Shown: positions 1-62,007, numbered from the stretch's first letter. The stretch is 64,000 nt of DNA from an uncultured Methanosarcinales archaeon (GCA_964388715.1 CAYMBN010000001.1:200962-264961); one strand, 5' to 3'. A program made the numbers and translations. Notes: generated from the letters alone by a model not told the origin.

Positions 1-1041
1 GTATTCTTTTGGTGGTTTTCCAGGAATGTGTTTGTATCTTATTTCTAATGTTTGTATTGGTCTAACTTCTTTTGCTGTGAATAAATCCAAAGGTGAACCT
101 GGGATGAATGCTCTTTGTGTTGCTTGATTAACATCTGCTGTTGTGTCTTGATATTGAGGATATCTTCTGCTTAATACAGGTTCAGGGAAGACCCTAAGAG
201 TTTCTATAGGACCTAAAATTCGTTGTTGAAGGTTTTGTAGTCGCATACGTCTTATTTGTTTTGTAGTTAAACCATAAGGAATAAGGAACCCCCAAAAAAG
301 ATTTGTTTTTTTAGGGTGTTGGTAAGTGATTAAAACAGAACTAAGACCATCTTTATTATATAGAGGAGAATCCTTTGCATCAAGATAATTTCTAAGGAAA
401 ATTACTTGTCCACTTGGGAGTTTAACAAAAGGTTTTTCATCTGGGTCAACATCAGTGCGTATGTTAACTTCTTCATTAAGATAAAGATTAACAACAGAAT
501 TAATTCCTCTTACATAAACAGAGGTGTTATAGAGGATTAAATCGTCTATGGTTAATGTTAATGTTTTTGATTCACCAATAAATACGCCTGTTAAATTATT
601 ACCTTCTTGGATAATTCTTAATTTGTATTTTTTGTTTGGGTCATAGCTTTCAAAACGTTTTCTACGTAGAACTCCGTTTCTACAAAAAGCTTTGAAATAT
701 TTTCCCCTTTTCTCGAGGTAAACTTCAACATCTTGGCCAACTTTAAGACGGACAGAACGATTATGTCTTCCTCTTTCTACTGCTTGTTGATATTTAGGAT
801 CACGTAATTGTTCGATTTGTTTGTTTGTAAGATCATGTATGTTTTTTACAATTGCACAGTTTTTTTCAATTTTTGTAATGATAGCTGTTAGAGTTTTTTG
901 TCTTTCTCCAAGTGGTTTTTTTTGGCTAATCACCCTTACAAAAGTACCTTTTCCGTCGAGAATATTACCAGTAGCTTCTCTACCATAATTTCTACGAATT
1001 CTAACGTTACATTGTTGTCCTAATTGATATTGTTGCTGCAT
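1..1041 (-). CDS. Hypothetical protein, runs off the left edge (MQQQYQLGQQCNVRIRR...)
   Basis: Manually translated open frame from ATG at 1041 to window start; TATA-like AT box about 25-30 nt upstream; absent from ORF track because it is truncated. Confidence 0.7.
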   Translation of the reverse strand, partial: MQQQYQLGQQCNVRIRRNYGREATGNILDGKGTFVRVISQKKPLGERQKTLTAIITKIEKNCAIVKNIHDLTNKQIEQLRDPKYQQAVERGRHNRSVRLKVGQDVEVYLEKRGKYFKAFCRNGVLRRKRFESYDPNKKYKLRIIQEGNNLTGVFIGESKTLTLTIDDLILYNTSVYVRGINSVVNLYLNEEVNIRTDVDPDEKPFVKLPSGQVIFLRNYLDAKDSPLYNKDGLSSVLITYQHPKKTNLFWGFLIPYGLTTKQIRRMRLQNLQQRILGPIETLRVFPEPVLSRRYPQYQDTTADVNQATQRAFIPGSPLDLFTAKEVRPIQTLEIRYKHIPGKPPKEY

Positions 1042-1146
1042 AATTAGCTGTAGTTTTGATGTATTATATAAAATTTTTCATCAACTCTTTTTCTCGACGG
1101 TAAAATAACCGAAAAGTATATAAACTACATAGTGCCTAATAGAGTT

Positions 1147-1629
1147 ATGGCGTTTGTTAGAATCAAAAAGATACAAGGAAAAGAGTATGCATATAAGGTA
1201 TGGAATGTTTGGAGAAAGAGAAAACAGTCTTCTCGACAAAAACAGACAAAATACCTTGGGAAGCTCTATAAACCCAAAATTATAGGGAATCAGACGTTTC
1301 AGGAGTATGTTAAAGATGTTGAAGAGTATTTTGAGACTCACTTTTTCAAGGAAATTATTTATGATATGATAAAGGCTGAATTGAAGAATTTAGACGTTCC
1401 AGAGGCTGTAACCATAGATTTCCAAAGACACAAAGTGCACATTAAGGAGAGGAATGTGGTGTTGAAGATGAATGAAGGCTTCTTTTGTACTCTCACTTTT
1501 AGAGAATTGATTAATTTTAAGGGTTCTGGAATTGATAGACAAGTTGGTGAACAACTTGCAAAGAAACTTTTGGAAGTTGGATTAAAGGTTGAACCTGAGA
1601 TTTTTGTTCAATTATTCCAGAAAATATAG
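1147..1629 (+). CDS. Hypothetical protein with transposase-like N-terminal DNA-binding segment, no catalytic domain
   Basis: MAFVRIKKIQGKEYAY...RQKQTKYLGK resembles N-termini of IS4/IS1634-type transposases; only about 160 aa, no DDE region; ATG at 1147 follows a TATA box. Confidence 0.6.
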   Translation: MAFVRIKKIQGKEYAYKVWNVWRKRKQSSRQKQTKYLGKLYKPKIIGNQTFQEYVKDVEEYFETHFFKEIIYDMIKAELKNLDVPEAVTIDFQRHKVHIKERNVVLKMNEGFFCTLTFRELINFKGSGIDRQVGEQLAKKLLEVGLKVEPEIFVQLFQKI

Positions 1630-1630
1630 T

Positions 1631-1654
1631 GTAATGCTTTAAAACACGCATTAC
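1631..1654 (+). terminator. Hairpin directly after the stop codon, T-rich tract downstream
   Basis: gtaatgc...gcattac inverted repeat. Confidence 0.35.
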
Positions 1655-2025
1655 AGCCTTTCTAGTGCAAGAATTGATGTTTTTTGTGGTTTTTTTGATA
1701 CTTTTCCTTCTAACTCTGCTCTTTTTTGTTATTTTCCTCTAGATATCACTTTAACTCTCACTTTTTACACGTAAATACCCTATAAACAATTTTTTTCAAT
1801 ACTGCAAATATATTGTAGAATATATCTATTAAAACATATATTTACAAAAAAATATTTTCTAGAATTGGATAAAACTTTTAATCAATGATTATAATCAATT
1901 TTCTTGAAAGTAACTGAAAAAGCTTAAAATATTTAGTTTGTAGTTGGGCAAAATGCCTTACTATTATGGCACAAAACCGAAAGATTTATATAACAGCTTG
2001 TGTATTAAAAAAATGGTGATTTTCA

Positions 2026-2541
2026 ATGAAACAAACAAAAATAATTTTAACTGATATTGAATCAAGTATTAATCCTTCAAGTGATGAATTAGCCAATGTT
2101 GTGATTAGTAGATTAGGCTTAATTCCGCGGAAAAAGGGTGCTACAAAGGATATGCCTAAGGTTCTTGTTGAAATGTATGAACGCAGTAAATATGCTTCTA
2201 AAGAGAAAAATCCACAGTTAGGAGTGATGACTGTAGAAGATATGGGAAGTTGTGCTGGAATCACAAGGCAAACAATGTATGATTATTTGAAACGATGGCT
2301 TGATCTGCAATTGATTAAAAAAATCAGTTTTATGAAAGATGGTGTTTTGGTTGTTGGCTATGTGTTAAATGGGAATACCTTAGAAAATGCTTTTCAAAAG
2401 ACTAAATCTGCTATTATGGGAAATCTAGACGTTACAGAGCGTTACATCAAGGAATTGCAAAAAGAGTTGAAGAATGAAAAGCTTAGGAAGATGAGTAAGA
2501 AAGAAGAAGAAGAGGAAGATGAAGCAAGCGATGAGCAGTAA
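2026..2541 (+). CDS. HTH (winged-helix-like) DNA-binding protein with C-terminal coiled coil and acidic tail
   Basis: MTVEDMGSCAGITRQTMYDYLKRWLDLQLIKK HTH pattern; GGTGA ribosome-binding site upstream. Confidence 0.75.
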   Translation: MKQTKIILTDIESSINPSSDELANVVISRLGLIPRKKGATKDMPKVLVEMYERSKYASKEKNPQLGVMTVEDMGSCAGITRQTMYDYLKRWLDLQLIKKISFMKDGVLVVGYVLNGNTLENAFQKTKSAIMGNLDVTERYIKELQKELKNEKLRKMSKKEEEEEDEASDEQ

Positions 2542-3365
2542 TTACTCGTGAGTGAACGGGATGTGGTGTATTGCTTGAATTCTGTGTTGTAAATTGTTCT
2601 GAGCATGGTTTAGGGTAAATGGAGAAAATTAAAGGGGAAATTAGACGAAAAGATTGAAATGTGTGTTCTAAAACGTTGTACTGCTTGGATTTTGGTGGCT
2701 GATTTTGGATTTAAGTTGAATTTTATGAATGAAAAAATAAGGAAAATGGGATAAAAATTCCTTGTAGGGAGAACTCAAATTTAGCTGAAATTTCCTTTAT
2801 AGAAAGATAATTGAAAATTACACAAATGCCATCCGAAAGTGATTTTTTTGAATGTTGGGAATTTGGAAGTTTTGAATTGATTTTAGATTTTTACTAAATT
2901 GTATCTATATTTTTCTTTGGGCATAAAAGCCTGTTTGGTAGACGTTTTAGCCTTTGCTGGCAAAGGGAATTTGCTAAATACGAAAAATAAGCGTGATTTA
3001 GGTATGTTTTTTTTGAAAAAGGATATTAGGGTAGAAAAAAATAAGGTGTTTTGCAGAGGGAGGATAGGAGTTTTTAGGGTTTAATGGATTTGTCGGGAAA
3101 ATGTAAGAATAGGGTTTTGGGTATTTTTTGATGGTTTCTGGAATCATGGCAGAGGAGTCGAAATCATGGTACCCTGTTCTGGGATTATTCCGAATGATAG
3201 TTTTTTATTGTTTACATGGGGAACCAAGGTTCTTGGGTATGGATTGTTGAAAAGAGGGTGATTTTTGGTGCTTTATTGGGCTTGTTGGGATAATGTCATA
3301 ATGAGTGTTTTAGCGTCTGAAAGAGGGGGTGAGAGTTTGGTTGATTTTGGGCAGAATTAGGAGTT

Positions 3366-4388
3366 TTATAGGAAACGTAGTTTTCTGTAAATGTGATCAA
3401 GTTCAGCCATAATTTCTGGTGAGAATGGAGCAGTAAGATAGGTTTGAGTGAATCCTTGGCATTGTGTGATTATTTGTTGTTTTTTTGTTTCTGGAGTTAA
3501 TTCTGGTATTAGTGCTTCTCTTTCTTGATAGATATTCTGAGCATGCTCTAAAGCTTTATTTTCAGCGTCTTGAAGATGTTTAAAGGTGTTTTCTGCTATA
3601 TGAGCTCCTTTTATTGCGTCTTGATCTGCTGCAGAATGAGGTATTTTTGTGATAAAGTAATGAATTAGCTTGTATAGAGCTCTCTCAGGCCTGCAAATCG
3701 CCTGGCAGAAAGGGTTTAAGTCCTGATTTGTGATTTTTTTGCCTTCTTCTTGTTCTCTTAGTATTTGATTATAAACAATTTCAATGAAAATAGCATCATG
3801 AGGGTTTTTTGATCTGTATACTTTAACACATTCTTTACATTTAGGGTCTTTAGAATGCCTTTTTCTGGCACTTCGGTAGTCTGTTGCAAGGTTTGATCTT
3901 AGTTCTCTTATCTCACTAATTGAATAACATCGTCCATTAGAAAGTTTTTGATCAAGATCTGAACCAAATCGCTTTGCTTTCCTTTTCTGTTGGGTTTTAA
4001 GTTCTTTTGCAATCTGCTCTAAACCCTTGAAAAACATGTATAGAGCCCTTGTAGGTCTACAAACATCATAACAAGAATAATCAATAAAATGGTCTGCTCT
4101 TCTTGAAATATCAAATTGGGTCATTGATTTTTTATAAGGGGTGAAATACTGTAAAAGAGTATTTAAAGCCTCTTTATCCTGGTTTCCCTCAATATGAAAC
4201 ATTGTTTGGTTTCCAGGAGAAAAACTAAATTGAGAAAGAAGATATGGTTCTCTTAAATTAGCAGAATTGCCATTATTAACCACTACAACGTTTGTTTCAG
4301 GGAAATTCTCCATTAACTCCTTTAATCTTGTTACTTGATCTACTGAAAAACGTTTTAATTCTTTCAAATGCACTTTTAATTCTAACAT
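3366..4388 (-). CDS. Protein with N-terminal HPr-like domain and two CxxxCRPxRALY repeats
   Basis: First about 85 aa align by eye to HPr (NGNSANLRE vs NGKTVNLKS; IEGNQDKEALNTL vs ASGADENDALNAL). Confidence 0.6.
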   Translation of the reverse strand: MLELKVHLKELKRFSVDQVTRLKELMENFPETNVVVVNNGNSANLREPYLLSQFSFSPGNQTMFHIEGNQDKEALNTLLQYFTPYKKSMTQFDISRRADHFIDYSCYDVCRPTRALYMFFKGLEQIAKELKTQQKRKAKRFGSDLDQKLSNGRCYSISEIRELRSNLATDYRSARKRHSKDPKCKECVKVYRSKNPHDAIFIEIVYNQILREQEEGKKITNQDLNPFCQAICRPERALYKLIHYFITKIPHSAADQDAIKGAHIAENTFKHLQDAENKALEHAQNIYQEREALIPELTPETKKQQIITQCQGFTQTYLTAPFSPEIMAELDHIYRKLRFL

Positions 4389-4518
4389 TCATCAAAGGTT
4401 TTAATAGGTTATATATAAAATTACCTGTTTTTCCTAACTAATTGGTAATAGATTAAGAAAGGATTTATTTGAAGTAAAATCTTTAAGCTTTGATAGAATG
4501 TTTTATTCTGTGTGTTTT

Positions 4519-5064
4519 TTAGAAATAATCCCTTAGGAATTGATTCTTAGAGCCAATTTCAGGCTGAAATAATGGGCTTTTTATTTCAATTATATTTTCT
4601 CTTGCTTGAAGTTCTTTAAACGCCTTATCAAGGCTTAAATAGGCTGTGCTGAGCTTATATTCAATGACCACAGATATGCCTTTGGTTATCAAAACGTTGA
4701 TATGTTGCTTTACAAGCTTTGTGGAAAGGTGTAGTTTTTCTGAGATTTGTTTGAATGTTAGTTTTTCTCCAGAAAGGTATAAAACAAGGAAAACCTGCTT
4801 TTCTTGAAGGTTCAGGGGCTGTATTGCTGTTTTTTCAGATTTGATGTTTTGAGAAATCTTTTCAACACTAACTTGGATATCGTCGATACGTTGTTGTAAT
4901 TTGTTCATTTTTTGGTCTATTTCGTATAAACCGTCTGTTTTTTCCTGTAATTCCCCTGTATTCTCATTAATTGACTCTCTATGGTCGTCTAGTTCGTGTT
5001 TTAGATTAGAAATTGTTTTTTTTAGTTCGTCAGTCACCTTTTTTATGTGTTTCTTACTAAACAT
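4519..5064 (-). CDS. Coiled-coil plus winged-helix protein with C-terminal PIP-like motif
   Basis: N-terminal heptads; LNLQEKQVFLVLY...LTFKQISEKLHLSTKLVKQHINVLITKGI wHTH; ends NQFLRDYF. Confidence 0.75.
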   Translation of the reverse strand: MFSKKHIKKVTDELKKTISNLKHELDDHRESINENTGELQEKTDGLYEIDQKMNKLQQRIDDIQVSVEKISQNIKSEKTAIQPLNLQEKQVFLVLYLSGEKLTFKQISEKLHLSTKLVKQHINVLITKGISVVIEYKLSTAYLSLDKAFKELQARENIIEIKSPLFQPEIGSKNQFLRDYF

Positions 5065-5133
5065 ATAGATTTACCCCCGAGAAGCTAGGGGATTAGGTTG
5101 CTTAAAAAATTTTCGATTTTTAGTTGCTACTTT

Positions 5134-5772
5134 TTAGTGTTTTTGAACTGGTTTTACGACGATAAACTTTTCTTTTCCTTGCTTTATAATTTCAAAATTT
5201 TCAGTAGTTTCAAGTTCAGTTAATAGACGATAAAATGAACTTTTTGAACATAAACCTTGTTCATCGACGAGCATTTCTTTTAATTGATAGGCTGAGATCT
5301 TCTCATATCGTTTTATCGTCGATAAAATCAATCCCTTGATATAATCTTTTGAGTTTCGACTAAACTTTTTAAGCAGTTTTTGTCTGAAATTTGAGGTTGC
5401 TTTTTCCTTTTTCTGTTCTAAAAGAGCTAATCTTTGGTTAATCTGGTCAATTTTTTCTTCTGGGATTGAAGTGAGGTCAGTTTGATGTAATTTTGCCTTT
5501 ATCTGGTTGATTTCGGTTGTTACATCTCTTAAGTGGTATTCCTGGTCCAGGATTTGTCTTATCTCTTGTTTTATGTCTGGTTGGTACTTGAGCTGGAGTG
5601 ATAGTTCTTGGATTTGAGATTGCTGCTCTAAATTTTGTTTGTGGAGGTAATCAATCCATTCTTTTATGCTTTGGTTTTCCCTTTTTAAACCACCAAAATT
5701 TTGTTTGAGAAATTGATATAATTGCATCCATCTGCTTTGTTCAAGTTCCTTATTTTTGGTAAAAAGTCCCAT
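5134..5772 (-). CDS. Coiled-coil plus C-terminal winged-helix protein
   Basis: Long heptad region; ISAYQLKEMLVDEQGLCSKSSFYRLLTELE wHTH. Confidence 0.75.
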   Translation of the reverse strand: MGLFTKNKELEQSRWMQLYQFLKQNFGGLKRENQSIKEWIDYLHKQNLEQQSQIQELSLQLKYQPDIKQEIRQILDQEYHLRDVTTEINQIKAKLHQTDLTSIPEEKIDQINQRLALLEQKKEKATSNFRQKLLKKFSRNSKDYIKGLILSTIKRYEKISAYQLKEMLVDEQGLCSKSSFYRLLTELETTENFEIIKQGKEKFIVVKPVQKH

Positions 5773-6076
5773 TTTCTAATAATAAAACACAGCAAATATA
5801 AAAATCTTTTGTTTTTTGGGATTATAATGGGAATGAAATGGGAGCATTTTGGGAATGTTTATCGACGCTGTGGTGGTTGGGACTGGGACTATGGTGGGAC
5901 AGTCTCGGGAGTACGAAAAGACTATGTATATTTTGATGAAAAAGGCTGGGGTCTACGAACAAGTTTTTGGATGGTTTTTCTAAATGGTTGAAAAAATGTG
6001 ATTGAAAAATTAATGTTAAAAATTACAGGAAAATCATGATTTTTGAAAAAATAAGGTAAAAATGACTATTTTGTTG

Positions 6077-6277
6077 TCGGTAAGATGTCCAAATAGTGTC
6101 GAAAAGTGAGGGTTTATTTGTGAGTTTTAGGGCTAGTTTTGGTAAGATTAATCAAAAGTGAGAATTTGATTTGTAACCAATTTTGATAGAAATTAAACAA
6201 ATATGAGATATGCCAAAAAGTGAGTGTTTTGAGTCGGTAAGATAGGCTAATTATAGGAAAAAGTGAGGGTTTATTTG
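6077..6277 (+). repeat. Iterated intergenic motif AAAAGTGAG (x4), three preceded by GGTAAGAT
   Basis: Copies at 6102, 6154, 6216, 6259; 19-bp AAAAGTGAGGGTTTATTTG exact at 6102 and 6259. Confidence 0.8.
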
Positions 6278-6386
6278 AGGTATTTATGGGATGTAGGGCT
6301 TGGAATGTTTGAATTTGGTGGTTTGAGGGCTTGTGAAGGTATTTTGAAGGGTAAGGTTTAAATATTTGAGGTCATTAGAGTGAAAT

Positions 6387-7028
6387 ATGAGCTTGATTAA
6401 AACAAAAAAACAGCTAGCAATGGTTTTGAGTGGCTTGGAAATCTTTGATAAGCCTAAAGTGAGACTTGAGCAGTATGCAACTGATGGAGATAGTGCTGCA
6501 ACTGTATTATGGAATGCTTTTATGCAAGGTGATATTGAGCAGAAGGAAGTGGTTGATATGGGCTGTGGTACTGGAATTCTAGGTATAGGGGCTCTATTGT
6601 TAGGTGCTAGAAAAGTACATTTTATTGATATTGATGAAGCTGCTTTGTTTAAAGTGAGGATAAACATCAAAAAAGTGGAAAGTTTGCTTGGTGTGGTGTT
6701 GAGTTCTAAAGTGGAAGTCGTTTCAAAAGATGTTGTCGACGAGGGTGTTGGAATTAAAGTTGATACTGTCGTCGAGAATCCACCGTTTGGGATTAAGAAA
6801 AAACATGCAGACCGCGATTTTGTCGTCGAGGCAATGAAAGTTGCAGATGTTGTTTATTCAATTCATATGGTAGAGAGTGAGGAATTTATTAAAAAGCTCG
6901 TCGAGAAAGAGGGTTTTTTGGTTAGTGGAGTTTTTGATTTTTCTATTCAATTAAAGCAAACAATGAGTTTTCATAAGAAAAAAATTGATAGGGTAGGAGT
7001 TGTTTGTTTGAGAATTGTTAAAAAGTAA
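6387..7028 (+). CDS. METTL5-like RNA N6-adenine methyltransferase
   Basis: LEQYAT, VVDMGCGTGILG, NPPFG motifs. Confidence 0.9.
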   Translation: MSLIKTKKQLAMVLSGLEIFDKPKVRLEQYATDGDSAATVLWNAFMQGDIEQKEVVDMGCGTGILGIGALLLGARKVHFIDIDEAALFKVRINIKKVESLLGVVLSSKVEVVSKDVVDEGVGIKVDTVVENPPFGIKKKHADRDFVVEAMKVADVVYSIHMVESEEFIKKLVEKEGFLVSGVFDFSIQLKQTMSFHKKKIDRVGVVCLRIVKK

Positions 7029-7175
7029 ATTGTTTTTTAATAGTCTCACATAGTCTCAGTCTTGATTTTTATCGACGAGAAATGATAGTCTCAGGTTGGG
7101 AATGATGATTTAACAGTAACATTTATATAGGTTTGGACGTTTCTTGTGAGTATTAATATCAAGAGGGGAATTATT

Positions 7176-7451
7176 ATGGAACTAAATGTTATCGAACAAA
7201 GTAAAGGAAAATTAATCTTTGAATTAAAAGGAGAAGATCATGGTTTTTGTAATGTGTTGAAAGATGAGTTGAACAAAGACAAACATGTTAAAGGTGCTAC
7301 TTATAATATTGAACATCCACTTGTTTCTGAACCACGATTTGTCGTGGAGACCGACGGTGCTGATCCTAAAAAAGTGTTAACAGATGCTGCTAAGAGATTA
7401 AGTAAGACTGTGGATAAGTTTAAGACTCAATATAAAAAAGAAGTAAAATGA
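7176..7451 (+). CDS. rpoL: DNA-directed RNA polymerase subunit L (Rpo11)
   Basis: GEDHGFCNVLKDEL...ATYNIEHPL. Confidence 0.93.
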   Translation: MELNVIEQSKGKLIFELKGEDHGFCNVLKDELNKDKHVKGATYNIEHPLVSEPRFVVETDGADPKKVLTDAAKRLSKTVDKFKTQYKKEVK

Positions 7452-8014
7452 TTTCTTTAGAACAAGCTGAGAAATTGATTAAACTTGCTAGACAGAGTAT
7501 TGAAAGTCATTTTTCTGGAAAAGAAGTTAGTACTGAGTTTAAGGAGGAGTTTTCTGAGAAAAGAGGAGTGTTTGTTACTCTGACTATTAACAAGGAGTTG
7601 AGAGGTTGTATTGGATATATTGAAGCTGTGGTGCCGTTGTGGCAGGCTGTGATTGATGCTGCGCGAAATGCTGGTTTTTCTGATCCTAGGTTTGGGCCGT
7701 TATCAAAAGAAGAATATGAAAAGGTGGATGTTGAGGTTTCGGTTTTGACTGTGCCTAAGCTTGTTGAAGGTGATTATTTGCAAAAGGTTAAAGTTGGAAG
7801 AGATGGTTTGATTGTTGAGAAAGGAATGAATAAAGGGTTATTGCTGCCACAAGTGCCTGTTGAGTGGAAATGGGATGTTAGGCAGTTTTTGAATCATACT
7901 TGTATGAAAGCTGGCTTAGCTCCTAGTGCTTGGGAGAGTGGGGAGTGTAAGATATATTCTTTCCAATGTCAGGTTTTTAGTGAGGAAGATGGTAAGATTG
8001 TACAGAAAATGTAA
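7448..8014 (+). CDS. AMMECR1 / AmmeMemoRadiSam protein A
   Basis: GVFVTL...LRGCIG, DPRF, GLLLPQV, CMKAG. Confidence 0.93.
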   Translation: MISLEQAEKLIKLARQSIESHFSGKEVSTEFKEEFSEKRGVFVTLTINKELRGCIGYIEAVVPLWQAVIDAARNAGFSDPRFGPLSKEEYEKVDVEVSVLTVPKLVEGDYLQKVKVGRDGLIVEKGMNKGLLLPQVPVEWKWDVRQFLNHTCMKAGLAPSAWESGECKIYSFQCQVFSEEDGKIVQKM

Positions 8015-8201
8015 ACTTTTAGAAATTTCTTAAATTTCTAAACGGTTTAAAAACTCTGTTTTTAAAACTTTTTCTTTTGGTTGTCTGAAATAGCTGTTTT
8101 ACGACGGTATAAGGGGTGTAGAGAAGGGTCCTAAAACAGGTATTTTCATAGTGCCTAATTTGTGGAGAAATGTGTTGTTTTTTGGATTAATTCTGACATT
8201 T

Positions 8202-8384
8202 TTATATAGCAGGTTCTGCTATTGGACCCTTGTAAGGTTTGTTTTTATTTGGACGGTTAAGTATTTTTAGAATGTCTTCAACTCTTTTCATGTAATATCT
8301 TTTATCAGGATTATCATAAGGATTACCAATATCAGTTGGAACTGTCTTACAGCCTTCTTTTATAATTTCATTTATTGTGGTCAT
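8202..8384 (-). CDS. Small hypothetical protein
   Basis: ATG-start 60-aa ORF with TATA-like box upstream, downstream of PEP-mobile gene. Confidence 0.4.
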   Translation of the reverse strand: MTTINEIIKEGCKTVPTDIGNPYDNPDKRYYMKRVEDILKILNRPNKNKPYKGPIAEPAI

Positions 8385-8430
8385 TTTATACTATAAAAGA
8401 AGTTATTCTTTATAAATCTTTTGTTTTTTG

Positions 8431-9783
8431 TTACTGTTTAGTGACAATGCCTTTGTCTGCGTTGACTTCAACAATATCACCATCTCTTAATGCTCTGGTG
8501 GCTATCTTTGTTCCGATGATGCATGGCTTTTTCATTTCTCTTGCTATGATTGCTGCATGACATAAGATTCCACCTTCGTTTGTTACAAATGCTGCTGCAC
8601 GTTCCATTGCAGGTACAAATTCTGGGATTGTCATTGATGCAACTAAGATGTCTCCTGGTTTTACTTTTCTTATGTCTGAGATTTCTTGGATAATTTTAAC
8701 AGTGCCTTTTGCATATCCTGCAAAAGCTGTGCTACCTTTGATTTCTTTGATACCTGTTATTGATTCATCTTTTAGGTTTTTGATTATTTCTACTGACATT
8801 ACACCATCTTGGCTTAGAAAAGATATGTTTTTTTGTTGAAGTCTTTGTTTGAATTGGTTTTGGTCAGTATATTTGTTGTTTAATAGGTTGATTATTTCAT
8901 GGAATAGCATGTTTCTTACAATTTGGTAATCCCATTCTGTTTGTTTTGATATTTCTTTTAGTAAATAAGACATGTAAAAGGATGATTTTAGGAAAAGGTT
9001 CATTCTGTGGGTTCTGAAGTAGACATATGTTTTGACTAGTTCAACATAATCAGGATCTATATTGATTTTTTTTATTATTTCTTGTGATTTTAATTTGATT
9101 TCTTGTTTTTTTTCTTTTATTGATTTTTTTGAGATTTCTTTTTTGAGTCTTGATTCTATTTGTTCTTTGGTTAAAGCTTCTCCTGACCTTCCTTGAAATA
9201 TCCAGCCCCATTTTTTTATGTGATTGTCTATAGGGGTTTTGTTAATTTGAATATCTCTTAGTTCATCAAGTTCTTGCTCTGTTTCGTCGATAAGTTCTGT
9301 TGTTGTTAGGATCTGGAAATATTCTTTTTGTAGGTCTGGGTTAGGTTCTTTCTCATTTATCATTAATCTAAGGTTTGTTTCAATAACAGGTTCAATTACA
9401 TTAGCAATTACTAAAGCTGGTGAGTAGTCTCTTGCAAGGTTTTGGATTGTTATTATTGCTTGTTTTAGTTCTTGTTTTGAGTTAAAGGTTTTGTTTTGGA
9501 GTGTTAAACAATAGTTTACTAGTTTGTTTCCTAAGAAACCTAGTTTTTTTGTTAAGTTAATGAAATATCTTGGAGTTTTTTCTTTTAATTGTTTTTTTAT
9601 GATTTCAACTCCTTGCTTGAATTCATGATCCTTATATCCTATTTCATAGCAATAATTTCTGAATGCATTTACTCCTAGTTTAAATCCAAGAATTTCTTTA
9701 CATTTTTCATCATATACTCCTAAGGAAACTAAATCTAGGAAAGTTACAATGTTTTTTCTTTCTCCTATTTTCATCCATTTCAT
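8431..9783 (-). CDS. PEP-utilising enzyme mobile (phosphohistidine swivel) domain protein with helical N-terminal region
   Basis: GDILVASMTIPEFVPAM...TNEGGILCHAAIIAREMKKPCIIG; no ATP-grasp domain evident. Confidence 0.88.
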   Translation of the reverse strand: MKWMKIGERKNIVTFLDLVSLGVYDEKCKEILGFKLGVNAFRNYCYEIGYKDHEFKQGVEIIKKQLKEKTPRYFINLTKKLGFLGNKLVNYCLTLQNKTFNSKQELKQAIITIQNLARDYSPALVIANVIEPVIETNLRLMINEKEPNPDLQKEYFQILTTTELIDETEQELDELRDIQINKTPIDNHIKKWGWIFQGRSGEALTKEQIESRLKKEISKKSIKEKKQEIKLKSQEIIKKINIDPDYVELVKTYVYFRTHRMNLFLKSSFYMSYLLKEISKQTEWDYQIVRNMLFHEIINLLNNKYTDQNQFKQRLQQKNISFLSQDGVMSVEIIKNLKDESITGIKEIKGSTAFAGYAKGTVKIIQEISDIRKVKPGDILVASMTIPEFVPAMERAAAFVTNEGGILCHAAIIAREMKKPCIIGTKIATRALRDGDIVEVNADKGIVTKQ

Positions 9784-9840
9784 TTTAATACCTGAAAACT
9801 TACTGTTTTATTTAAATTTAGCCAAGATATATTAATATTA

Positions 9841-9859
9841 GTGCCCCCTTAGGGTGCAC
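9841..9859. promoter_or_regulatory. GC-rich imperfect palindrome, probable TrmB-family operator between divergent genes
   Basis: GTGCCCCCT-T-AGGGTGCAC (8 of 9 bp symmetric) in an otherwise AT-rich spacer. Confidence 0.55.
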
Positions 9860-9900
9860 CAATAGTAAGATTTATATATTAGAATGGATTATTGTATATT

Positions 9901-10638
9901 ATGAAGTTGCTTAGAGAGATTGGATTGACTGATTCAGAAGTAAAGGTGTATCTTGCTTTGTTGGAATTAGGTAGTTCTAAAAAGGGTAGGATTGTGAAGA
10001 AGGCTGGGATTACGTCTTCTAAAGTGTATGAGGTTGTTGATAAGTTGATTGAGAAAGGTCTTGCAAGTTATGTTATCAAGAATAAGGTTAAGCATTTTAG
10101 TGCTGCGCCACCTTCTAGGATTAAAGATTACCTGATTGAGAAGGAGGATAGGTTAAAGAAGCAGGAGCAAGAGTTTGAAAATATATTGCCTGGTTTGGAA
10201 TTAAAGCAGAAGCTTGTTAAGAAAGGAACTGATGCAGAGGTTTATCGTGGTTGGAAAGGGATGCAGACTGTTTATAATGATTTGTTAACTAGTTTGAAGA
10301 AAGGAGAAGAGTATTATATTGTTGGTGCTAGCAAAGGAATGGATGAGAAAAGAGTAAAATCGTTTTTTATTAGGTTTAATCAGAGAGTTGTTAGGAAGGG
10401 ATTAAAGGTTAAGATAATATTTAATGAAAATGCTAGAGGTAATATACCTAATGTTGGGAAAACTGGCAAGGTAAGGTATCTTGATCAGACAACTCCTGCT
10501 GAGATTTTAGTGTATAAGGATAAGGTTGGGATTGTGTTGCTTGAGAAAGAACCTTTGGTTGTTTTGATAAGTGGTAAGAGTGTTGCGAATTCTTTTAGGG
10601 CGTACTTTGATGTTATGTGGGTTATGGGGAAGAAGTGA
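9901..10638 (+). CDS. TrmB-family transcriptional regulator
   Basis: LREIGLTDSEVKVYLALLELG...SKVYEVVDKLIEKGL; C-terminal effector domain ending FDVMW. Confidence 0.92.
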   Translation: MKLLREIGLTDSEVKVYLALLELGSSKKGRIVKKAGITSSKVYEVVDKLIEKGLASYVIKNKVKHFSAAPPSRIKDYLIEKEDRLKKQEQEFENILPGLELKQKLVKKGTDAEVYRGWKGMQTVYNDLLTSLKKGEEYYIVGASKGMDEKRVKSFFIRFNQRVVRKGLKVKIIFNENARGNIPNVGKTGKVRYLDQTTPAEILVYKDKVGIVLLEKEPLVVLISGKSVANSFRAYFDVMWVMGKK

Positions 10639-61875: not shown

Positions 61876-62007
61876 TTTTTCATCACCTTTTTTGGTTAAT
61901 ATTTTTATCTTCAAATCAAAATTTGAAGTTAGTCTATAATCAAAAGGTGGAGAGTTATTGTTTATATAGTTATTGATTTTGTCGACGAGAAAAGGTATTA
62001 CTTTATA

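Follow-up and report, generated by a model that had tools for sequence, protein, structure and literature searches.

What holds together two small neighbouring genes for coiled-coil and winged-helix proteins and the crowd of repeated sites in and around them, in a genome that shows no ParA/SegA-type ATPase? The locus lies near the start of a 64,000-nucleotide stretch of DNA (C1:200962-264961, called the window throughout) from a 1.30-Mb archaeal genome in 31 contigs, with 31% G+C and an estimated completeness of 95.8%. An earlier note on this DNA had proposed an undescribed module for chromosome organisation or replication there, made up of four genes that are here labelled A, B, C and D; X is an open reading frame (ORF) between C and A, MT a methyltransferase gene, RpoL and AMMECR1 two further genes of the facing side, and G000 the window's own genome. 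With regard to the organisation and inheritance of DPANN chromosomes, this locus combines the repeat logic of plasmid centromeres, intragenic palindromes like those of SegB and two protein families without a characterised member, in a clonable target. We consider it somewhat probable that B, together with A, builds a self-regulating nucleoprotein complex over multiple sites at its own locus. Such a complex would control the B-A operon and probably the facing one too, and it may fold a 3-kb stretch of DNA. The features on which this explanation is built are the following.

Gene A: 4519-5064, minus strand; 181 amino acids (aa), second gene of the B-A pair.
Gene B: 5134-5772, minus strand; 212 aa, first gene of the B-A pair.
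TATA-like box, putative element of the B promoter: 5794-5804, minus strand; TTTTTATATTT in the direction of B, as read from the sequence, 22 bp ahead of that gene's start codon.
Iteron array 1: 5817-5860, plus strand; four TGGGAnTnnnn units at exactly 11-bp spacing, with GGGA at 5818, 5829, 5840 and 5851.
Central palindrome-like site: 5858-5868, no strand; TTTATCGACGC, one mismatch to TCGWCGA, between both iteron arrays.
Iteron array 2: 5878-5917, plus strand; GGGA at 5879, 5885, 5896 and 5907, the last three at 11-bp spacing.
Palindrome cluster, dense core of TTNTCGWCGANAA sites: 4880-7078, no strand; in A at 4880, in B at 5156, 5264 and 5316, in MT at 6736, 6769, 6823 and 6898, and in the MT-RpoL spacer at 7072.

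All four ORFs that had been proposed as the module (1147-1629 and 2026-2541 on the plus strand, 4519-5064 and 5134-5772 on the minus strand) were confirmed; gene calls are simple ORF calls throughout, and gene starts in relatives were inferred from alignments. Single-query searches covered 60 relatives of the same order, one per family, and found matches to A in 48 (from a single sequence), to B in 34, to D in 33, to C in 16 and to X in none. As a profile, A reaches 109 of 116 same-order genomes and 28 of 34 genomes of other orders in the class, there with its winged-helix half only. A profile of B matched 172 loci, of which the best 80 were kept, and all counts out of 80 refer to these; A adjoins or follows B in 77 of them. 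On the opposite strand upstream of B lie RpoL (72 of 80 loci), D (68) and MT (67), with AMMECR1 present in 18, and C adjoins A as a convergent neighbour in 13. The canonical order, in the orientation of the window, is C> A< B< and then MT> RpoL> (AMMECR1>) D>. A further set was centred on A: 40 loci from 40 of the 48 matching genomes, with gene families clustered over these and the window (41 sources). B adjoins A in 15 of 41 A-centred loci; for the comparison of arrays and palindromes the 41 are the same 40 loci plus L147 from genome G074, 15 with B and 26 without. The window's genome itself contains no paralogues of six locus proteins, as searched with tblastn. The locus is order-wide and vertically inherited. 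With A and B adjacent in 77 of 80 loci, the two genes make up a functional pair that is conserved and co-occurs with a conserved local motif array, the two points that the earlier note had put forward for checking, and the four-gene module as such dissolves into the B-A pair, an occasional partner, C, and a D gene displaced from the facing housekeeping operon.

The first component of the array is found just upstream of B, where two runs of iterons, of four and of three to four units with 17 bp between them, flank TTTATCGACGC beside a TATA-like box that we infer to be an element of the B promoter. Phased runs of at least three units occur only at 5818 and 5885 in the whole 1.3-Mb genome. Across 68 spacers there is a median of 8 GGGA within 260 bp of B, and 281 of 433 distances between neighbours (4-39 bp) are exactly 11 bp, compared with about 11 expected at random placement; another 43 are 22 bp and 23 are 33 bp. 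The iteron consensus is TGGGA[AC]T[AG]T; counted from the start of B, the median distance is 41 bp to the first unit and 147 bp to the last. Among the A-centred loci, iteron arrays are seen in 8 of the 15 with B, always just upstream of B, and in none of the 26 without it. The other seven loci with B comprise four with variant or degenerate iterons (L051 has GAGACTAT at 11 bp and L030 TGGGAAYG at 9 bp; L033 and L052 have degenerate TGGGAAT/GAGACTAT units, L052 with five units on each side of ATATCGTCGATAAAT) and three in which B is inverted relative to A and no array is present. Exact 11-bp phasing with a variable unit sequence is the signature of a face of the DNA, not of an RNA fold.

The second component is the palindrome TCGWCGA, or TTNTCGWCGANAA in its extended form of 13 bp with one central base. 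Four such sites had been reported inside A and B, and these are indeed present, three as exact TCGWCGA (4880, 5264 and 5316) and one (5156) with a mismatch. TCGNCGA occurs 10 times in the window where 0.57 are expected, a number reached by none of 100 shuffles, and 9 of the 32 copies of TCGWCGA in the genome lie at window 4880-9284. An unbiased 7-mer scan of 267 windows of 8.5 kb puts the palindrome cluster in 5th place, and A/T-rich or trinucleotide-like words feature in most of the others among the top 25. With a matrix built from the relatives only, the genome yields 17 sites of at least 14 bits, among them 7 at window 1094-7072 and a further one at 61982. When the threshold is set at 8 bits, the window has 16 matches, 13 of which fall within its first 10 kb. 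The 80 loci have 171 copies of TCGWCGA, and the interval from -1800 to +1100 of the B start holds 135 of these, at a density about nine times that of the flanks, in three peaks -- the 3' half of MT with the 5' end of RpoL, the region 50-230 bp upstream of B, and the inside of B with the B/A junction -- between flanks that are almost empty. In 31 of 78 loci a palindrome of at least 10 bits is present within 260 bp upstream of B; its median distance from the start of B is 101 bp.

These intragenic sites are held beyond what the encoded peptides demand. When synonymous codons are shuffled within the loci, MT retains 3.7 +/- 1.9 sites compared with 26 observed, RpoL 3.0 +/- 1.6 compared with 25, and B 12.0 +/- 3.5 compared with 25; for the genes of the window itself, 8 coding palindromes are observed, where 2000 synonymous shuffles give 0.49 and never more than 4. 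The notion that the cluster is a mere product of conserved peptides ([VLIF][VD][DE]) is ruled out by the same shuffles. In MT the positions vary by lineage (near codons 46, 79, 84, 123, 167 and 192) and the excess is kept. The array is thus richer than the earlier note saw, with 11-bp iterons flanking a near-palindrome at the B promoter in addition to palindromes in the neighbouring coding DNA, and both kinds of site track B more than A. Taken together, the sites and the gene pair suggest a large protein-DNA assembly at one chromosomal spot.

The layout of A and B as a coiled coil followed by a winged helix-turn-helix (HTH) domain, which had been read from the sequence, is borne out by their AlphaFold models. 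That of A (mean predicted local distance difference test score, pLDDT, 88.5) has one long predicted helix (residues 3-74), a winged helix (85-144) and a further helix; that of B (mean pLDDT 79.3) has three long predicted helices and a C-terminal winged helix. The top Foldseek matches of A are MarR/ArsR regulators (AdcR, CzrA and HlyU, E about 4e-4), and that of B is the Hop2 winged helix 2mh2, a weak match (E 2.5e-3). In Pfam, A is barely above the cut-offs of Sigma70_r4 (25.5 bits, cut-off 24.1) and HTH_5 (22.1, cut-off 22) and below that of MarR_2 (19.6, cut-off 27); these are generic HTH signals and amount to no family assignment. B finds nothing in Pfam at E<=0.01, and neither protein is assigned in the curated families of Pfam and NCBIfam. 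The A profile has a weak match in the PDB to the Lrs14-like chain 6cmv (E 0.0035), and SegB is absent among the PDB matches listed for the A and B profiles (the best 60 of 68 and the best 60 of 127, respectively). For both proteins the ESM Atlas returns solely unnamed Woesearchaeota/Nanobdellota clusters; a word-index homologue search with A gives 4 proteins, none of them named, and in a set of 1.84 billion proteins the B profile finds 723 cluster representatives with E<=0.001. A and B are uncharacterised coiled-coil and winged-helix proteins of Woesearchaeota.

BLASTP finds nothing between the two. In G152, a closed genome of another order, a protein encoded beside an A-like gene resembles the N-terminus of B with 92% and A with 89.5% probability, and because this bridging protein matches both, A and B are read as distant paralogues, sharing a "K..F..VK.D" N-terminal start, a coiled coil and a winged helix. 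A prediction of the A+B complex scored 0.01 and gives no verdict either way. Within the long helix of A, the alignment shows H27, N32 and E37 to be invariant and N34 and T35 nearly so (D.H..SIN.NT.E). The spacing I31..N34-T35..L38 resembles an ion-binding motif of trimeric coiled coils, and this IxxNTxxL stretch may be one that favours trimers. The A profile also has weak matches to the SadA fragments 2wpq and 2wpr.

In the explanation favoured here, B and A would be expressed from one operon and would assemble, probably as oligomers through their long helices, on dedicated sites at their own locus. One kind of site would be the TGGGAMT iterons, phased at 11 bp in two runs that begin about 40 bp before the start of B, next to the TATA-like box, and that in the window flank the palindrome-like site; the other would be the TTNTCGWCGANAA copies within B, A and the facing MT, and in relatives also within RpoL. 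At the least, such a complex would govern how the B-A operon is transcribed, and probably the divergent MT-RpoL-(AMMECR1)-D operon too; since the sites are spread over about 3 kb of coding DNA, it would probably also fold or bridge a stretch of that length. Even as no more than self-regulation with control of the RpoL operon, this would be a case of putative protein-binding sites held in coding DNA against synonymous drift in many species. A division of labour in which A binds the palindrome and B the iterons was considered and lowered, since loci with A and without B seldom carry palindromes, and A may therefore not be the palindrome binder.

Several observations weigh against this explanation. 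A gene pair or a site that is common to relatives may count one inherited event repeatedly: about 24 loci have the same site at RpoL codon 6, and the relatives are not independent, with the result that the counts overstate the number of events (that such a site is retained in different species nevertheless amounts to a constraint). In A the sites are not in excess (7, compared with 5.3 in shuffles) and D is depleted (1, compared with 5.3). Neither A nor B has a characterised homologue, and the direct hhalign comparison of their profiles gives a probability of only 20.6%. Where A stands without B, a palindrome of at least 10 bits is found within 3 kb in 9 of 26 loci and at no fixed place, and G016 (in which B is inverted relative to A) and G074 (which has no B) have A and no TCGWCGA at the locus. 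About 6 of the genome's 17 best palindromes, finally, lie in promoters elsewhere, which would also fit a general transcription factor encoded elsewhere.

The abundance of the word differs greatly between closed relatives: TCGWCGA occurs once in the whole of G074 and once in G152, 24 times in G016 and 139 times in G025. Set beside a reversed control word, the numbers are 1 and 359 in G074, 1 and 229 in G152, and 139 and 104 in G025; CpG depletion may explain part of the scarcity, and the spread between genomes is large. The sole copy in G152, a 0.74-Mb genome of another order, lies about 600 bp from its A-like/B-like pair. Ahead of that pair (L148 4902-8928, G152:C1) stand a winged-helix-like gene of 89 aa and an ORF of 740 aa that by eye looks like a Hef-type helicase-nuclease and whose 5' part has G152's only TCGWCGA.

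The neighbours of the pair, and the remaining repeats that enter into the alternatives below, are as follows.

Gene D: 1147-1629, plus strand; conserved protein without a family.
Gene C: 2026-2541, plus strand; conserved probable HTH protein.
Spacer: 2542-3365, no strand; 824 bp, gene-free, G-over-C skewed.
Gene X: 3366-4388, minus strand; orphan 340-aa ORF between C and A.
AAAAGTGAG repeats, four: 6102, 6154, 6216 and 6259 (span 6102-6267), plus strand; in the MT-proximal half of the B-MT spacer.
MT, small methyltransferase: 6387-7028, plus strand; by Pfam/NCBIfam.
RpoL, RNA polymerase subunit L: 7176-7451, plus strand; by Pfam/NCBIfam.
AMMECR1: 7448-8014, plus strand; by Pfam/NCBIfam.
Outlying palindrome-like site: 1094-1100, no strand; TCGACGG, 14.2 bits, in the promoter region of D, with more outliers at 953 and 9284.

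Three features set the window apart from the canonical order: D lies on the far side of C, X stands between C and A, and the XerA-like genes are elsewhere. In relatives D is the last gene of the MT-RpoL operon (68 of 80 loci), and in the window it has been displaced to the other side of the locus. Among the A-centred sources, a gene for a XerA-like tyrosine recombinase stands next to A in 22 of 41 and PAC2 in 20 of 41; the XerA-like genes of the window's genome sit on other contigs, at C5:75693 and C21:981.

The spacers had been described as the longest in the window. This is true of the 824-bp spacer at 2542-3365, the longest of 67 gaps between 68 called genes (median 54 bp), and untrue of the 396-bp gap, which is outranked by gaps of 512, 422, 422 and 416 bp elsewhere in the window and comes about sixth; the B-MT gap measures 614 bp only if an ORF at 5722-5991 is no gene, and the gene caller scored it at 395 bp. 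This small ORF, on the plus strand, runs for 89 codons from a TTG or about 54 from an internal ATG, is rich in Trp and Gly and overlaps the iteron arrays, whose GGGA repeats probably gave rise to it as a by-product. The spacer at 2542-3365 is flanked by two convergent genes. No remnants of the usual neighbours (XerA, PAC2, PadR and others) were detected by tblastn in window 1-9000, with nothing below E 0.07, and blastn between the spacers gives 10-14-nt matches only. Over 67 loci the B-MT spacer has a median length of 515 bp (range 266-1145), and related spacers have motifs in common and no alignable sequence.

One of these motifs is of the GTGAG type. The genome has 20 copies of AAAAGTGAG, of which 7 lie at window 1337-6267: on the plus strand the four copies listed above, and on the minus strand three at 1337, 1492 and 1757, in and just after D. 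A related CTCACTT core is present in 63 of 67 related B-MT spacers, and in most of the 26 relatives that were printed out a GTGAG box lies 8-10 nt before the ATG of MT, downstream of a TTTTCAATATTGAAAA palindrome. In most of the relatives in L066-L092 the last 110 nt before the MT start have, in this order, TTTTCAATATTGAAAA, an A/T-rich box, and TTTACTCRTGRAAAGTGAGAGTT ending 8-10 nt before the ATG, which, from the sequence, looks like a conserved promoter and leader of the MT-RpoL operon. AAAAGTGAG has the look of a leader or promoter-proximal element that belongs to the MT operon and has been multiplied in some lineages, and the minus-strand trio near D may have been left behind by the rearrangement in which D was displaced. 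The GTGAG box was also considered as a possible Shine-Dalgarno-like element, by reference to the 3' end of the 16S rRNA.

Known systems resemble the locus from several sides. In the type II partition system of plasmid R1, ParR binds its iterons in a cooperative manner, acts as a repressor of the promoter and forms the partition complex (PMC2241845), and R1 parC also has two runs of direct repeats of 11-bp period beside the promoter of the presumed binder's operon. ParR, however, is a ribbon-helix-helix protein, whereas B and A are predicted coiled-coil and winged-helix proteins (by their models and the winged-HTH Foldseek matches); the present locus is chromosomal and vertical across an order, with no ParM-like gene linked; and the core of parC holds the promoter, whereas here the core holds a palindrome and the TATA-like box stands beside array 1. 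TubR of the type III partition systems is a winged-helix protein that binds iterated direct repeats (tubC) and controls its own operon (PMC6009700), which is to this extent like the arrangement here, with iterated direct repeats at the operon of the presumed winged-helix binder; TubR (6aht) is a weak Foldseek match to B (rank 24, E 5.2e-2). Unlike that system, this locus has no TubZ gene linked to it, and TubR is without a long N-terminal coiled coil.

For SegB of the Sulfolobales, PMC12284271 gives 46-49 sites, 84% of them intragenic, which are clustered near segAB and bridged into loops; the protein compacts DNA, and the sites that it bridges are about 1 kb apart. In both systems the site is a 13-bp palindrome built around one central base, a few dozen copies exist, most of them intragenic, and the density is highest at the binder's locus and in the binder genes. 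The resemblance is a likeness in behaviour only: SegB is a ribbon-helix-helix protein that works with the ParA-type SegA, whereas the proteins here are winged-helix, without sequence relation to it and with no AAA_31 found, and the SegB system has no iteron array. As for the MarR, ArsR and Lrs14 families, the winged helix of A superposes best on MarR/ArsR, and palindromic operators in their own promoters are typical of these families. A differs in its 70-residue N-terminal helix with invariant H27, N32 and E37, which is not that of the MarR dimerisation helices, and the locus differs in its (probably paralogous) partner gene, its iteron array and the constrained sites inside neighbouring genes. 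In the literature searched there was no co-mention of Woesearchaeota and iterons, and the papers that mention DPANN together with winged helix and coiled coil deal, by their titles and abstracts, with other topics (such as Lrs14 proteins, transcription and two-component systems).

These likenesses bear on a reading that goes further than regulation and that we regard as unlikely: B and A on the iterons and intragenic palindromes would mark the locus for segregation, anchoring or looping, as a centromere-like organising platform with no ParA, ParM or TubZ partner. In its fullest form, which we find equally doubtful, Woesearchaeales would have a ParA-independent platform on which a paralogous pair polymerises on parC-like iterons and bridges SegB-like palindromes in housekeeping genes, and if true this would be a new way for tiny ParA-less archaea to mark and move or tether one chromosomal locus. 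The iteron array at a single genomic locus would suit such a role, as would a layout of two 11-bp repeat runs around a core next to a promoter, matching that of R1 parC (PMC2241845), and a mostly intragenic 13-bp palindrome that is densest around the genes of its presumed binders, like the SegB sites (PMC12284271); promoter control alone would hardly account for the synonymous-site constraint that is seen as far as 1.0-1.4 kb from the promoter. The earlier statement that the window has no ParA/SegA gene holds for the whole genome, in which a search for AAA_31 (ParA/MinD/SegA-type) ATPases has no match, at 95.8% completeness and with matches in 14 of 14 control genomes; a ParA-free mechanism would thus be needed (for CbiA there are just two weak matches, in 460- and 574-aa frames elsewhere in the genome). 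The XerA-like recombinase gene so often found next to A is also in its favour. On the other side, the conserved neighbours are MT, RpoL, AMMECR1, D, the XerA-like gene, PAC2, PadR and UPP synthase, and no motor, NTPase/ATPase or membrane anchor is linked in any of the mapped loci; no ParM-like gene is among these neighbours, in which no search aimed at the ParM family was made. B is without a match in 26 of the 60 same-order genomes by the single query, and its absence from many genomes makes a universal segregation role for the array unlikely. The locus has, moreover, no fixed position relative to orc1/cdc6, the distance from the A or B locus being 184 kb in G155 (with a canonical locus), 329 in G016, 198 or 31 in G025, 403 in G074 and 15 in G152. 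These distances also weigh on the proposal that the locus is a replication origin or an origin-marking element, the most improbable of the readings, for which a long, repeat-rich intergenic region beside genes for DNA-binding proteins would speak. A Cdc6_C family search places the only orc1/cdc6 genes at C1:8792, at least 192 kb before the window, and at C12:23448, both outside the window as had been stated. With the mini-ORB pattern (TTCC...GAA core) of PMC1904270, the window has 14 matches at exactly two mismatches compared with 22.6 expected, none closer and no cluster, with the proviso that the lineage's own ORB may differ; the cumulative GC skew rises steadily over C1 120-225 kb without a turn, which is weak evidence as skew follows gene strand. 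Origin marking, which the earlier note had offered beside segregation, thus finds no orc1/cdc6 nearby, no mini-ORB-like cluster and no inflection of skew.

The motifs might also belong to other factors, the palindrome being a general regulator site for information-processing genes, the iterons and GTGAG boxes promoter and leader elements, and A and B ordinary regulators, which we think distinctly unlikely. Strong palindromes do occur in promoters elsewhere in the genome -- upstream of a tRNA-like sequence by L21e-RpoF-DUF655, beside the RNase P gene Rpp21, and in a divergent promoter at C3:33032 -- and others lie inside PAC2 and radical-SAM genes next to GINS51 and inside unknown genes; the leader-like place of the GTGAG box in most relatives and the rarity of palindromes at A loci without B agree with this as well. 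It does not account for iteron arrays that are found only with B (8 of 15, compared with 0 of 26) and nowhere else in the genome, for palindromes about nine times denser at the 80 loci than in their flanks, or for the lone site of G152 beside a homologous gene pair. That the long skewed spacers encode non-coding RNAs or a small protein, with the repeats as features of the transcript, is very improbable. In its support are the G-over-C skew on the MT-coding strand in 67 of 67 related B-MT spacers, the same skew (GC skew +0.56) in the spacer at 2542-3365, and the 54-89-codon ORF that overlaps the iterons, but Rfam at E<=1 gives a single chance-level match in window 1-10000 (STnc180, 23.6 bits with a gathering threshold of 50) and none in 2542-3365, ARAGORN finds no tRNA in the window, the 11-bp phasing is of the kind that belongs to a DNA face, and the spacers cannot be aligned.

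Two of the strong palindromes elsewhere in G000 form a pair, 33 bp apart and just upstream of the tRNA-like sequence, which was recognised by eye (L149 2108-2260, G000:C1:13607-13760), between the L21e-RpoF-DUF655 operon and a 174-aa gene.

The other members of the proposed module are less informative. C, which had been taken for a third HTH protein, matches HTH_Crp_2 at 18.2 bits, below the cut-off of 27, and the same match is seen in 4 of 20 family members, so that it is a probable HTH protein at most; its profile has no matches in the PDB. The "transposase-like" N-terminus that had been ascribed to 1147-1629 is not supported by a Pfam, NCBIfam or PDB match of any kind: D has no Pfam family, alone or with all of its 25 aligned relatives, no NCBIfam family and no PDB sequence match. 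X has no Pfam or NCBIfam family and matches itself alone among 5.8 billion protein clusters; judged by these comparisons, it is evidently an orphan insertion. The DNA also recurs in marine and seawater metagenome runs, those listed being DNA runs of two studies with no RNA run among them. Within X there is a 27-nt direct repeat whose copies, at 3671 and 4037, lie 366 bp apart, which suggests that it may encode a two-repeat protein.

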